This document shows positions 53,251-58,379 of a DNA stretch of 64,000 nt, in pieces. Numbering within the stretch: the first letter of the stretch is position 1; each line of letters starts with the position of its first letter. The notes below the pieces were generated by a model. That model saw nothing but the letters and a program-made list of their open reading frames with translations, did not search any database and was not told the DNA's origin. Both the position numbers and the translations under genes were made by a program. This DNA is from a phage, in the sequence record PZ386959.1; one strand, written 5' to 3'.

Positions 53251-53277
53251 AAAATAAAAAAGGCTCCCGAAGGAGCC
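53251..53277 (-). terminator. intrinsic terminator (minus strand)
   Basis: Palindrome GGCTCC-CGAA-GGAGCC with T-run on minus strand, 3' of endolysin gene. Confidence 0.6.
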
Positions 53278-53287
53278 TATGAAGATA

Positions 53288-53752
53288 TTACTTTGGATAT
53301 ACACTGTCAAGATAAATGTTAGCTTCCATTCTACGTCTATTTTTCAGGCCGTTTGAAGTGACCTTCTCACCTTTGACTGTAATCTTGTTCCACCACTGCA
53401 TAGCTTCTGCACAACCTACCTTATTACCAGCATTGTGGCGCTTAATAAATGTAGAATCCTGCATAGCTGTGATACCAATGTTGTATGTTTCACTTACAAG
53501 TGCATCGAACTCATTCTGAGAGGTTGGAACCTTGATAGCTTTGTTCACTGCTGCAACAAACTTTTCAACATCTGCGAGAAGATACTGTTCAGCTTGTCCA
53601 GCCGTGATTTTCATACCCATCTTAACAGGTTTTCCGTCAATACGGATTGTACCATACCCGATTGTTGGGATTCCGGCAGAGTCTTTGTAAGCCTCTAACT
53701 TCAGACCTTCAAAGAACTTAATGGCTTCTAAGCCTTTTCTTGAGAGTTGCAT
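53288..53752 (-). CDS. endolysin (lysozyme, GH24-like)
   Basis: 154 aa; LEAIKFFEGLKLEAYKDSAGIPTIGYGT is the canonical phage lysozyme N-terminal catalytic motif (E..AY.D..G..TIGYG). Confidence 0.85.
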   Translation of the reverse strand: MQLSRKGLEAIKFFEGLKLEAYKDSAGIPTIGYGTIRIDGKPVKMGMKITAGQAEQYLLADVEKFVAAVNKAIKVPTSQNEFDALVSETYNIGITAMQDSTFIKRHNAGNKVGCAEAMQWWNKITVKGEKVTSNGLKNRRRMEANIYLDSVYPK

Positions 53753-54885
53753 TATGCCTCCCCTGTTGGGTTAACTGTAACTGTTGCCGCATTAGATGTT
53801 ACAGAGCCACCTGCACCAGTCACTACGCAAGTGTAGCTTCCTGCATCAGCAGCAGTTGCACCTTCTTTGGTGTAAGTTGCAGTCATTGCGTCTGGGATGT
53901 TTTCCTCACCCTTCTTCCACTGGTAACCTGTCGCACCTGTTGCCACAACGTTGAGTGTCAATGTCTCACCTTCAGTGATTTCTTGATTAGTTGGCTGTTG
54001 AGTGATTACAGGAAGTGCTTTAACGGTTACTGTTGCAGGGCTAGAAGTAACGGAACCACCTGCACCTGTTACAACGCAAGTATATGAACCTGCATCTGCT
54101 GGTAGTGCGCCAGACTTGCTATAAGTAGCGTTTGTAGCTGAAGGAATATTAGAGCCATCTTTCTTCCACTGATAGCCCGTTGCACCTGTGGCAGTCACTT
54201 CCAAGCTAATGTTGCCACCTTCATTGATGGTCTGGCTAGAAGGTTGTTTGGTAATCACTGGTAAAGCGTTCACAGTAACTGTTGCTTCATCTGAGGTAAC
54301 GCTTGTTCCAGCCTCTCCAGATACAACACAAGTGTATGAGCCAGCGTCAGAAGGTACTACAGATTGTTTTGTGTAAGTTGCAGAAGTGGCACTGGGGATA
54401 TCCTCACCATCCTTCTTCCACTGATATCCAGTGGCGTTAGTTGCTAGAACACTTAGAGTAAGTGTGCCACCCTCATTGACTGTTTGTCCTGTTGGTTGCT
54501 GAGTAATTGCTGGTGGCTTAATAGCATCCTTCAGCTTAGCATTCAACATTGAGAATGGCTTCACTCTTGCCAGCCATTCACAGTAAATTGTGTCAACATC
54601 TTTACCGTTGATAATTGCATACTGTAAATCCATGAAGAAATCAGCAGTTCTCATCTGCGCGCCGACGCTGTAAAGGAGTTCATCACTAAATGGAACTTTG
54701 TAGTCTGGTTTGTAATCAAACTTCTCAACTTCTGCAATATCAGCTTCAGGCCAATATGAACTATAGGTAAGTGGTAAAATAGCTTCTTGATATGTTCTAA
54801 AATCATATCTCTTACCAGCCTTTACATTTGCAATGAAGCCCTTTACAAATTCTTTGAAGTCTGGGTAAGTCTTTGCTTTAATCAT
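53752..54885 (-). CDS. protein with three tandem Ig-like domains
   Basis: 377 aa; N-domain about 130 aa followed by 3 repeats of about 84 aa each containing GYQWKKDG and GSYTCVV (Ig Y-x-C signature). Confidence 0.6.
   Translation of the reverse strand: MIKAKTYPDFKEFVKGFIANVKAGKRYDFRTYQEAILPLTYSSYWPEADIAEVEKFDYKPDYKVPFSDELLYSVGAQMRTADFFMDLQYAIINGKDVDTIYCEWLARVKPFSMLNAKLKDAIKPPAITQQPTGQTVNEGGTLTLSVLATNATGYQWKKDGEDIPSATSATYTKQSVVPSDAGSYTCVVSGEAGTSVTSDEATVTVNALPVITKQPSSQTINEGGNISLEVTATGATGYQWKKDGSNIPSATNATYSKSGALPADAGSYTCVVTGAGGSVTSSPATVTVKALPVITQQPTNQEITEGETLTLNVVATGATGYQWKKGEENIPDAMTATYTKEGATAADAGSYTCVVTGAGGSVTSNAATVTVNPTGEA
53755..54510 (-). repeat. 3 tandem copies of a ~252-bp coding repeat (Ig-like domain units)
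   Basis: DNA-level periodicity visible (CTTCCACTG.TA.CC.GT.GCACCTGT recurs at about 252-bp spacing). Confidence 0.6.
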
Positions 54886-55253
54886 TTCTTTTTAGCCTCT
54901 AAACGTGCGTTTAATCTAAAATAGCCTTTATGTTGTGGAGACACATCACTAACAACAATACCTTCAACTTTATAGCCCTTACCAATTACATACTGGATAT
55001 CCATAAGAAACGTACCAAGCCCAACAATGTGGAACATCGGGTATAGTAACTTATCTGAATCTGGGAGTTTAATTTCTGGGTTATAGGCGGGTTGTTCGGC
55101 AGTTGGTGTAATATCCTCTTCAGGCCATTTACTCATTCTCCATGTTAAAGGTGATGCAATAACATCGTTGAGATTATATCTTTCACCATTCTCCACGGAG
55201 TGGATATAGGATTGTAGGAAGCAGTAAAAGTCTTTTGCACTCTTAGCCTTCAT
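54882..55253 (-). CDS. paralogue of the N-terminal domain of the Ig-like protein
   Basis: 123 aa; aligns with residues 1-125 of 53752..54885 (KDFYCFLQSYI.. vs PDFKEFVKGFI.., FLMDIQYVI vs FFMDLQYAI). Confidence 0.5.
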   Translation of the reverse strand: MKAKSAKDFYCFLQSYIHSVENGERYNLNDVIASPLTWRMSKWPEEDITPTAEQPAYNPEIKLPDSDKLLYPMFHIVGLGTFLMDIQYVIGKGYKVEGIVVSDVSPQHKGYFRLNARLEAKKK

Positions 55254-55300
55254 TAAATATCCTTATAAATAGAGAAAGGGGCATCAGCCCCTGTTTATAC

Positions 55301-55891
55301 TTAAGCTTTGGTCTTAAGTAGGTTCTTAAGTTTTTTGAGATTCATGCTCTCGTCAAACTTAAAACCAAATCCATTGACATAATCAATGAACTCGGATTTC
55401 TTACTCAGTGATAGTGCGTAACTCATATCGAAGTTATTACTTGTTTCTGCATCTGGACTAGAGTTCACATCAAATGAAATTTCTGTAGGCTCTTGCTTGC
55501 TACTTCTCATATTATCAATCAATAGACAGGTATAGTTTGCTGGATAGAAGTTAACACTACCATCAACATATCCATACTTGTTATTGTGAATAAGGCTGGA
55601 AAATACCTTAAGAAATGTTTCTGATTCGTGGCATACAAGTTTGAATTGACTGCATTCTCCAAGAGCCACTAAAGAGTAAGGACTTTCACTATCAATGTCG
55701 TAGTTTGGGTTTGATGTTGTAACCGTCACACGCATCAGGTTATTTGCAATAGTCTTCTGCTTGAAAGAATTTGGAACATAGTGAAGACCTCTATCACACT
55801 GATTAACTAGCTCTTTCAATAGGTCATTTGCATATGGTGAATTAATTGATACAGAGCCATCACTATTATAATTAAAACTTACTGTTAACAT
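55301..55891 (-). CDS. hypothetical protein
   Basis: 196 aa ORF. Confidence 0.5.
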   Translation of the reverse strand: MLTVSFNYNSDGSVSINSPYANDLLKELVNQCDRGLHYVPNSFKQKTIANNLMRVTVTTSNPNYDIDSESPYSLVALGECSQFKLVCHESETFLKVFSSLIHNNKYGYVDGSVNFYPANYTCLLIDNMRSSKQEPTEISFDVNSSPDAETSNNFDMSYALSLSKKSEFIDYVNGFGFKFDESMNLKKLKNLLKTKA

Positions 55892-56383: not shown

Positions 56384-56510
56384 TAGGCTTATAAATACTT
56401 AGAAGATAACTTAAAAGGTTCCTCTAAAAAGGCTATTTAAACAGATATCTTTCTGGATATCTATCTTTTATCTTAAAAGCCTTTTAAGAGGTCTTATAAG
56501 AGGCATACCA

Positions 56511-56963: not shown

Positions 56964-58379
56964 ATGAGCGAGTTATTTAAACATGCGCACCTTCATGCAG
57001 GTCGAACTGAAAATGGTGCTGTAAACCATACTTCATCAATGTCTGCTCTGGTAGACTTCTACAAAGCCGCTGGCTCAAGCCGTAGCAATGTAGAAATCTT
57101 ACCAGACCTGTTCTACAAAGCTTTGCGTGAGGATGTTGATGTTGCAGTTCGTATTTTACTGCATATGCGAGATGTACGAGAAGGTATGGGTGAGCGTAAA
57201 GCTTTCAGAACTGTTTTACTTCAAGCAATCGAAGACAAAGTTTTAGAACCTACACAGGTACTTCGTATTATGGATAAGGTTGCAGAACTTGGTCGTTTTG
57301 ATGACTTCAAAATCTTCGTAGGCACTCGTTTTGAGACAGATGCCTTCAAACATTTAGAAGCAGCGTTACTAGACCCTGCAACAGCAGGTTTAGCAGCCAA
57401 GTGGCTACCACGAGTAAAACCACGCCACAAACAGTTTGTAAAACGTTTCTGTAAGTTTGCAAACTTAAGCGAGAAAGAGTACCGAACACTGTTATCTGCA
57501 CTGTCTGATACGGTTGAGCAAAAAATCTCTGCTAATGAGTTTGGTAAGATTGACTACAGCAAGATTCCTTCACTCGCTGCTGCACGTTACCAAAAACTCT
57601 TTAACCGTAAAGATGGAGAACGCTACAAAGCTTACATCGAGTCATTATCAAAAGGTGAGGCTAAGATTAACGCTGGTGCTATTTACCCATACGATGTGAT
57701 TAAATCTATTAAGTATGGTAATGCAGATGTTGCTAATGAACAGTGGAAAGCACTTCCAAACTGGATGGCAGAAGGTGAGAACATCTTGTGTATGACTGAT
57801 GTCTCAAGCTCAATGTCTTGGGTGAATTTCGGTTCAATCACGGCTCTTGATATTGGTGTATCTCTTGCCCTGTATGTAGCAGAACGCAACACAGGCTGCT
57901 TTAAGAATGAGTTAATGGTTTATTCAACAAACCCTCACTTCATCGAACTGAGTGGTGATTTACGAAACCGTCATCGTCAGGTAATGCGTTATACTGAATA
58001 TGGTTCAACTAACTTGCAAGCAGCTTTTGACCGCATTCTTGAGACAGGTAAGAGAAACAACTTGACTCAGAAAGATATGCCAAGTAAGCTTATCATCTTC
58101 TCTGATATGGAGTTCAATCAGGTTGACGGTGCAAATGGTTGTACAAACTTTGAAGCAATTCGTAGTAAGTACAAAAAAGCTGGATACGAAATGCCACAAC
58201 TGGTATTCTGGTACTTAGCAAACCGTAATGGTACTTGCGAAGTGTCTGTTAAGGATAACGGTGTAGCAATGGTATCAGGGTTCTCTCCAGCCACTTTAAA
58301 AGCTCTGCTTGGTGGTGAGAAGTTTGACCCAACCAGCGTAATGCTCAAAGCAGTAATGATTGACCGTTACATCTGGTAA
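56964..58379 (+). CDS. vWA-domain protein (possibly TROVE/DUF2828-like)
   Basis: 471 aa; MIDAS-like DVSSSMSW (DxSxS) in C-terminal half; N-terminal half with TENGA motif; family assignment from memory only. Confidence 0.35.
   Translation: MSELFKHAHLHAGRTENGAVNHTSSMSALVDFYKAAGSSRSNVEILPDLFYKALREDVDVAVRILLHMRDVREGMGERKAFRTVLLQAIEDKVLEPTQVLRIMDKVAELGRFDDFKIFVGTRFETDAFKHLEAALLDPATAGLAAKWLPRVKPRHKQFVKRFCKFANLSEKEYRTLLSALSDTVEQKISANEFGKIDYSKIPSLAAARYQKLFNRKDGERYKAYIESLSKGEAKINAGAIYPYDVIKSIKYGNADVANEQWKALPNWMAEGENILCMTDVSSSMSWVNFGSITALDIGVSLALYVAERNTGCFKNELMVYSTNPHFIELSGDLRNRHRQVMRYTEYGSTNLQAAFDRILETGKRNNLTQKDMPSKLIIFSDMEFNQVDGANGCTNFEAIRSKYKKAGYEMPQLVFWYLANRNGTCEVSVKDNGVAMVSGFSPATLKALLGGEKFDPTSVMLKAVMIDRYIW

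Follow-up and report, generated by a model that had tools for sequence, protein, structure and literature searches.

We have analyzed a pair of related genes that lie side by side next to the endolysin gene of a phage, within a 64,000-nucleotide stretch of DNA (sequence record PZ386959.1) that is hereafter called the window. The larger gene encodes a 377-amino-acid (aa) protein identified by its sequence as an orthologue of a known capsid decoration protein, Hex-Dec of phage Bas63 and gp20 of phage Sf14, in which a capsid-binding domain (CapBD) is followed by immunoglobulin (Ig)-like domains. The smaller gene encodes a stand-alone paralogue of the CapBD. Over its full length the window is 93-96% identical to more than 200 Felix O1-like myophage genomes, and by this identity the source phage is a Felixounavirus of the subfamily Ounavirinae. 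The coordinates given for the two open reading frames (ORFs) in the first-pass annotation of the window were confirmed, and the two genes and their parts are as follows:

53752..54885, minus strand: 377-aa predicted Hoc-like capsid decoration gene of the Hex-Dec/gp20 type, CapBD plus three Ig-like domains (9ncf_S, 9c2d_S, phrog_3995, Pfam)
54517..54885, minus strand: CapBD of Hex-Dec, approximately aa 1-123 (residue-for-residue alignment to 9c2d_S and 9ncf_S)
54265..54513, minus strand: Ig-like repeat 1, aa 125-207 (motif positions, Pfam)
54013..54261, minus strand: Ig-like repeat 2, aa 209-291 (motif positions, Pfam)
53764..54012, minus strand: Ig-like repeat 3, aa 292-374 (motif positions, Pfam)
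54882..55253, minus strand: 123-aa predicted stand-alone CapBD paralogue without Ig domains (phrog_4463; BLASTP; AlphaFold2/Foldseek; ratio of nonsynonymous to synonymous substitution rates, dN/dS)

Using phmmer against the Protein Data Bank (PDB), the 377-aa protein matched chain S of 9NCF from Bas63 (E 1.5e-297; deposited as 'immunoglobulin-like domain protein') and chain S of 9C2D/9C3A from Sf14 (E 3.8e-170; 'putative tail protein'). Both alignments begin at residue 1, and the protein falls within phrog_3995 (E 1.8e-207). Its CapBD is nearly identical to that of Bas63 Hex-Dec (9NCF chain S; PMC12609058) and ~86% identical to that of Sf14 gp20 (9C2D/9C3A chain S; PMC11821841). Cryo-electron microscopy (cryo-EM) has shown Hex-Dec/gp20 to be a monomer that sits centrally on pentamer-proximal hexamers of T=9 heads (PMC12609058, PMC11821841); from 540 positions of the major capsid protein (MCP), we calculate that these would be 60 of 80 hexamers. 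Beyond the CapBD the protein continues with one to four flexible Ig-like domains, and the authors of both structures compared the protein functionally with T4 Hoc (PMC12609058, PMC11821841). For Sf14 gp20 the anchor consists of salt bridges that link its Arg79 and Arg107 with Asp221 in three MCP subunits (PMC11821841). Both arginines are kept in the window protein, and among close orthologues Arg79 is found in 42 of 42 and Arg107 in 41 of 42. The two solved proteins thus resemble that of the window in having both anchoring arginines, the same type of Ig-like array and a gene beside the endolysin outside the structural module; they differ in number of domains, with four Ig domains in Bas63 Hex-Dec versus three here. 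With the anchor arginines, the N-terminal CapBD homology and a C-terminal array within the range of one to four Ig domains all present, the 377-aa protein is, as judged from sequence, an orthologue of Bas63 Hex-Dec and Sf14 gp20, and it is called Hex-Dec below. Its position at the hexamer centre of a T=9 capsid is inferred from ~95% identity to these orthologues.

Proteomic work on related phages also locates this protein in the particle. Felix O1 Gp36, the Hex-Dec of that phage, was recovered from virions purified on cesium chloride with 14 peptides and 44% coverage (PMC3185647), and Sf14 gp20 was likewise detected in virions by mass spectrometry (PMC11821841). The first-pass annotation had remarked on the location of the gene in a non-structural block. 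This location does not make the product non-structural, since the orthologues are capsid decoration proteins by cryo-EM (Bas63, Sf14) and by mass spectrometry of virions (Felix O1, Sf14); the more general rule cited at the same time, that Ig-like domains are usually found on virion surface proteins, applies to the 377-aa protein through these orthologues. The Bas63 paper itself reports a distance of >10 kb between the Hex-Dec gene and the structural module, and states that the product is mislabelled as 'tail protein' in most genomes (PMC12609058). The odd location is therefore explained by published work, and the Hex-Dec half of the present finding is already known (2025). The 'tail protein' label appears to trace back to Felix O1 Gp36, which was called 'major tail protein' in 2010. 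In UniRef, Hex-Dec has acquired the name 'Tail protein', and similarity has passed it on to the 123-aa paralogue, where it shows only that a pipeline noticed the resemblance. Annotation problems were seen in the public records PV390658.1 and NC_005282.1 as well as in UniRef names.

Three repeats make up the C-terminal two thirds of the 377-aa protein, in which the motifs GYQWKK and GSYTCVV each occur three times, at spacings of 84 and 83 aa (252 and 249 bp). The Pfam families Ig_3, Ig_2 and I-set give three matches each, well over their curated cut-offs (E 5e-33, 3e-28 and 5e-25, respectively), in agreement with the initial description of the repeats as Ig-like. The ~252-bp periodicity that had been described at the DNA level is real, as autocorrelation of the Ig region peaks at 0.50 at a lag of 249 against a background of ~0.33, and a repeat search returned one 33-nt family with 249-bp spacing. 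It is also weak: Tandem Repeats Finder reported no array in the Ig region, the repeats being too diverged at the DNA level. In pairwise comparisons the repeats share 55-63% DNA identity and only 33-41% identity at third codon positions. The weak DNA signal and the low third-position identity together indicate that the repeats are old and have been maintained at the protein level. Relative to Bas63, the window Hex-Dec corresponds to Ig1, Ig2 and Ig4; aa 201-375 align with residues 284-458 of 9ncf_S, and the third repeat has a near-identical counterpart in Ig4 of the Bas63 protein. The lengths of Hex-Dec proteins form a series of 210, 294, 377 and 460 aa.

The gene immediately upstream of Hex-Dec encodes 123 aa that align end to end with residues 2-119 of the 377-aa protein (36% identity over 121 aa, E 4e-18, BLASTP), a resemblance well above what chance would give. 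In phmmer the product matches 9ncf_S (E 1.3e-12). It belongs to phrog_4463 (E 1e-77), a family of unknown function that shows a reciprocal PHROG cross-match with the Hex-Dec family at ~1e-16, and a Pfam scan of the product matched no family. A model generated with AlphaFold2 (AF2) from a 30-sequence alignment had a mean predicted local distance difference test score (pLDDT) of 77.7 and a predicted template modeling score (pTM) of 0.76. When this model was searched against the PDB with Foldseek, only 9c2d_S and 9ncf_S were significant (template modeling score 0.72-0.73, probability 1.00), and the next match had an E value of 0.5; among predicted viral structures it matched Ounavirinae proteins only. 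The alignment and the model both bear out the earlier suggestion that the upstream ORF is a diverged copy of the N-terminal domain, and together they argue for membership of the CapBD family over the whole domain. The C-terminus of the paralogue falls exactly at the CapBD boundary, leaving no outward displayed domain, Ig-like or other. All 51 of its database relatives are likewise stand-alone, with lengths of 88-124 aa (122-124 aa for the intact ones).

Several observations point to constraint on this ORF. Pairwise dN/dS against UAB_Phi87, Felix O1 and Sf14 is 0.08-0.17, similar to that of neighboring genes, and a tblastn comparison with 253 related phage records showed the gene to be intact in 233, leaving 20 without an intact copy. 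In Felix O1, transcripts of ORF37 (the paralogue) and ORF36 (Hex-Dec) are maximal at 60 min by reverse transcription PCR (RT-PCR) and were grouped with those of morphogenesis genes (Table 3, PMC3185647). The concern, raised in the first-pass annotation, that the upstream ORF might not be expressed is answered by this transcript peak and by the purifying selection, and the paralogue is a real gene.

The paralogue differs from the CapBD of Hex-Dec at the published anchor points. At the positions equivalent to Arg79 and Arg107 it carries G78 and Q107, and it thus lacks the pair of arginines that anchors gp20 to the capsid. Across 47 paralogues, the Arg79 equivalent is Gly in 46, and the Arg107 equivalent is Gln in 42, His in 3 and Arg in 2. 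Of 120 aligned columns covering both families, 36 are conserved and identical, and 45 are conserved within each family and different between them. The isoelectric point (pI) is 7.8 for the paralogue versus 5.5 for the CapBD. The 45 family-specific columns and the difference in charge therefore indicate a copy under its own constraint and not one in decay.

To define the extent of the family, word-indexed protein searches gave close relatives only, and an exhaustive profile search showed its limits. When 1.84 billion representative proteins were searched with a profile of both families, the CapBD family proved tiny, its members falling into 12 clusters at 50% identity. The gene order is retained in a divergent 87-kb metagenomic phage, with a 195-aa gene followed by a 122-aa paralogue, a 298-aa Hex-Dec and a lysozyme. 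Its paralogue is 46% identical to that of the window versus 35% to its own CapBD, and the two CapBDs are 57% identical. Because the paralogues are closer to each other than to the CapBD, the duplication is older than the split between the metagenomic phage and that of the window; judged from these identities, the paralogue evolves somewhat faster than the CapBD. Two outgroups, the Erwinia Kolesnikvirus Hena2 (206 aa) and the Hafnia phage SarahDanielle (321 aa), have a single fused gene encoding a CapBD and an Ig-type domain, located between a phrog_4034 homologue and the endolysin, and have no free CapBD copy. As the outgroups have the fused gene only, the fused CapBD and Ig-type domain represents the ancestral state, and the free copy therefore arose by partial tandem duplication of the 5' part of the gene. 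The history proposed at first, in which the repeats were fused on after the duplication, runs the wrong way.

CapBDs are joined to varied modules elsewhere (proteins P0101, P0102, P0105 and P0104; 2941-3561 of locus L005). In Kolesnikvirus-like phages the outward modules are, as judged by eye, Big_2-type Ig domains, and P0104 combines the CapBD with a Lys/Ser-rich low-complexity tail in place of an Ig domain. By sequence comparison, the CapBD behaves as a general display anchor.

Some relatives have lost the paralogue. In six phages (mio, Z31, REP5, FGS030, fBSPA4 and P54) a common remnant is present, with an identical internal deletion and with the start codon lost:

2307-2497 of locus L004 and ~705-900 of loci L010-L014: 192-bp paralogue remnant in the six phages

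These phages come from Denmark, China, the USA, India and one unrecorded country, and the shared remnant points to one ancient loss that has persisted in a widespread lineage. Hex-Dec is intact in five of the six (mio, REP5, FGS030, fBSPA4 and P54), with dN/dS of 0.09-0.17 and dS of up to 0.8 between members; in Z31 it is interrupted by a stop codon. Since this paralogue-less lineage keeps Hex-Dec, the paralogue is dispensable for plaque formation and Hex-Dec is independent of it. Phage P54 is filed under Tequatrovirus, and its locus is Felixounavirus-like. One record named as a 'Staphylococcus phage' also occurs among the Felixounavirus matches.

The two genes form a compact block with the endolysin, and the flanking features are:

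53261..53278, minus strand: terminator-like hairpin 3' of the endolysin, G+C-rich, with a T run behind it; closes the cassette on the downstream side
53288..53752, minus strand: endolysin (phage lysozyme; PF00959, E 3.2e-40; phrog_7)
55277..55292, minus strand: G+C-rich terminator-like hairpin, GGGGCTGATGCCCC with a T run behind it, a short distance 5' of the paralogue; closes the cassette on the upstream side
55301..55891, minus strand: 196-aa conserved neighbor, phrog_4034 (PHROG match; synteny)

The paralogue and Hex-Dec ORFs share 4 bp (ATGA), and the endolysin lies directly downstream of Hex-Dec, its start codon sharing one base with the Hex-Dec stop codon (TAATG). The paralogue, Hex-Dec and endolysin genes are thus tightly coupled in a cassette bracketed by terminator-like hairpins. 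Terminator-like sites number 7 in 3.8 kb versus 2.2 expected, and in Felix O1 a terminator with the identical hairpin sequence has been reported at the equivalent position (end coordinate 20445; PMC3185647). RT-PCR timing in Felix O1 differs across this upstream hairpin, with ORF38 peaking at 25 min and ORF36/37 at 60 min (PMC3185647). A gap of 47 bp separates the hairpin from the start of the paralogue, and a search of this gap for a sigma-70-like promoter found none. A late-promoter-like motif in the gap, CTATTTATAAGG, has two matches in the window versus 0.5 expected; as 8 of 100 shuffles reach two, its recurrence was not significant and the motif was set aside.

The rest of the window encodes a DNA ligase, DNA polymerase, primase/helicase, ribonucleotide reductases, NAMPT, rIIA/rIIB and many small ORFs, and on the other strand, downstream of the locus, lie a DUF2828/DUF7788 protein and 26 tRNA genes. 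No further virion gene was found among the annotated large ORFs of the window and the neighbors of the locus, and the decoration locus therefore lies outside the structural module. The first-pass annotation was accordingly right to place the gene in a non-structural block, the window otherwise being made up of replication, nucleotide-metabolism, rII and tRNA genes. The 196-aa phrog_4034 protein has no Pfam match; its gene lies 5' of the decoration locus throughout the Ounavirinae examined, outgroups without the paralogue among them, and this constant position suggests a conserved link with the Hex-Dec/endolysin block. The DUF2828 and DUF7788 protein (471 aa; 56964-58379, plus strand), which is labelled 'RNA-binding protein' or 'vWFA protein' in related records, is directly upstream of the 26-tRNA array (58545-63556, plus strand). 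Two 12-bp tandem repeats, GATATCTATCTG x1.9 (56444-56466) and CTTATAAGAGGT x1.9 (56481-56503), lie in the intergenic region from which the minus-strand block and a plus-strand DUF5681 gene diverge, and these may be regulatory sites.

The available virion data do not include the paralogue. The list of Felix O1 virion proteins lacks it (PMC3185647), and the text of the VpaE1 paper names only gp54, gp58 and gp68, among 22 virion proteins, as new relative to Felix O1, by which the paralogue would be absent there as well. No PDB entry contains the protein, and neither cryo-EM paper mentions it (PMC12609058, PMC11821841). Both solved phages encode it, as bas63_0125 in Bas63 and gp21 in Sf14; in Bas63 there was 'no density' on hexamers free of Hex-Dec (PMC12609058), and Sf14 has the same Hex-Dec distribution as Bas63 (PMC11821841). 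A literature search for virion proteomics covering the paralogue returned a wV8 paper dealing with the tail fibre only, an STGO-35-1 paper on an unrelated siphovirus and an Sf14 supplement without a protein list.

Known systems offer partial parallels. Like Hex-Dec, T4 Hoc is a monomeric, non-essential decoration of the hexamer centre that carries a string of Ig-like domains, and the Ig region of the 377-aa protein matches Hoc-like PHROGs (phrog_2973, E 4e-42), with coverage only from about residue 120 on. In Hoc, however, the capsid-binding domain is C-terminal to the Ig domains, whereas that of Hex-Dec is N-terminal; the topology is distinct and sequence conservation is minimal (PMC12609058). 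Membership of the 377-aa protein in the T4 Hoc family was rejected on the N-terminal placement of its binding domain, and the resemblance is a functional one. T5 pb10 has an Ig domain similar to those of the window protein (5lxk, 8zvi, E ~1e-11), but only one such domain and an unrelated capsid-binding domain, and a stand-alone paralogue of pb10 was not found in the literature searched. The nearest precedent for two paralogues is Sid/Psu of P4, which are encoded in one late operon and both bind the outside of MCP hexamers (PMC7552001). Psu is a dispensable decoration of mature capsids, whereas Sid is a transient external scaffold of procapsids only (PMC7552001). The P4 pair and that of the window have no relationship in sequence or fold (Foldseek did not recover Psu), Sid and Psu act as dimers, and any procapsid role in the present system would be drawn by analogy. 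A stand-alone CapBD paralogue without the anchors was described neither in the two structural papers nor in the publications retrieved by full-text literature searches, and it appears to be undescribed so far.

We consider it likely that the locus is a late capsid-decoration cassette made up of the known Hex-Dec and a paralogue that is a partial duplicate serving as a non-virion accessory protein. By near-identity to its orthologues, the CapBD of Hex-Dec would be bound at the hexamer centre and hold the three Ig-like domains away from the capsid, as in T4 Hoc; their display is supposed to serve adhesion or environment sensing. The paralogue is an ancient partial tandem duplicate consisting of the CapBD only, with the fold retained and both anchoring arginines replaced, and it would be co-transcribed late and translationally coupled to Hex-Dec. 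It is probably a non-essential late accessory protein and not a stable component of the virion. How such a protein would act is a more tentative matter. The reading we favor is that it engages capsid hexamers or procapsids transiently, sharing the work with Hex-Dec much as Sid and Psu do, and we regard a capsid-directed but transient role, by that analogy, as possible though somewhat short of an even chance. A more specific version is improbable as it stands: the paralogue, while no part of the virion, would bind hexamer centres for a time, for example those of procapsids or of the three-fold hexamers, and would help to set where and when Hex-Dec attaches, thereby accounting for the decoration of only 60 of 80 hexamers. 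It would amount to a Sid/Psu type of arrangement that arose independently in an autonomous lytic phage.

Several points weigh against this explanation as a whole. The evidence that virions lack the paralogue is negative in kind: a protein needed 25% coverage or more to enter the Felix O1 list (PMC3185647), and icosahedral averaging could hide a paralogue bound at low occupancy. The late timing by RT-PCR is known from Felix O1 and not from the phage of the window. Loss of R79 and R107 is compatible with another mode of binding, as the distant CapBD homologues P0104 and P0105 also lack R79. The AF2 alignment included CapBD sequences, making the fold match not fully independent of the sequence homology, and a first AF2 run with a 12-sequence alignment (pLDDT 54.6) gave only noise in Foldseek and was discarded. 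Finally, phages may have recombined, which would make the long maintenance of Hex-Dec in the absence of the paralogue less certain.

Almost as likely as the transient capsid role, and thus doubtful in its own right, is that the paralogue has been re-purposed away from the capsid, for example for binding of a host protein. The loss of both anchors, the 45 family-specific positions, the shift in pI from 5.5 to 7.8 and the absence from virion lists would all fit such a change, and P4 Psu, a Rho inhibitor as well as a decoration protein that binds hexamers, shows that such a protein can have a second target in the cell. Against it stand the expression late in infection alongside morphogenesis genes and a Pfam scan that matched no family, and no observation points positively to another partner.

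That the paralogue is an overlooked virion component is unlikely. It could form an Ig-less hexamer cap, for instance on the 20 three-fold hexamers left empty by Hex-Dec, or be present at low occupancy; its CapBD fold, late transcription and translational coupling to Hex-Dec would suit this role. Hex-Dec occupies pentamer-proximal hexamers only, which the Sf14 authors attribute to a shifted Asp221 in the three-fold hexamers (PMC11821841); dependence on Asp221 would not be expected of a paralogue that lacks the arginines. However, both Bas63 and Sf14 encode the paralogue and show the same hexamer distribution, and it is missing from the Felix O1 list, by implication from the VpaE1 list and from every PDB chain.

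A dedicated chaperone or escort, which would keep the CapBD of Hex-Dec soluble or deliver it to mature capsids, is very improbable. The ATGA overlap suggests roughly equimolar synthesis and the pair is conserved across a deep divergence, but a widespread lineage with a single loss of the paralogue (mio, REP5, FGS030, fBSPA4, P54) has Hex-Dec intact under purifying selection, and the outgroups encode no partner of this kind for their fused CapBD-Ig protein. Because of the paralogue-less lineage, an obligatory role as Hex-Dec chaperone was rejected. A functionless relic of the duplication is equally hard to credit: although ~8% of relatives lost the paralogue and are still viable, it has a dN/dS of 0.08-0.17, survives at its full 122-124 aa in 233 records as well as in a lineage with just 46% identity, and where truly unconstrained decays to a 192-bp remnant.

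For the Ig-repeat protein, the main practical point is that 'tail protein', the widespread label for Hex-Dec, is wrong. If the paralogue does act on capsids, the pair would be a second example, after Sid/Psu of P4, of a decoration protein with a non-virion paralogue sharing its fold, and the paralogue could bear on the partial occupancy of hexamers by Hex-Dec. The CapBD is also of relevance to phage display, as it is compact and narrowly distributed and occurs naturally with I-set-like Ig domains, Big_2-like domains or a Lys/Ser-rich tail as its modules.

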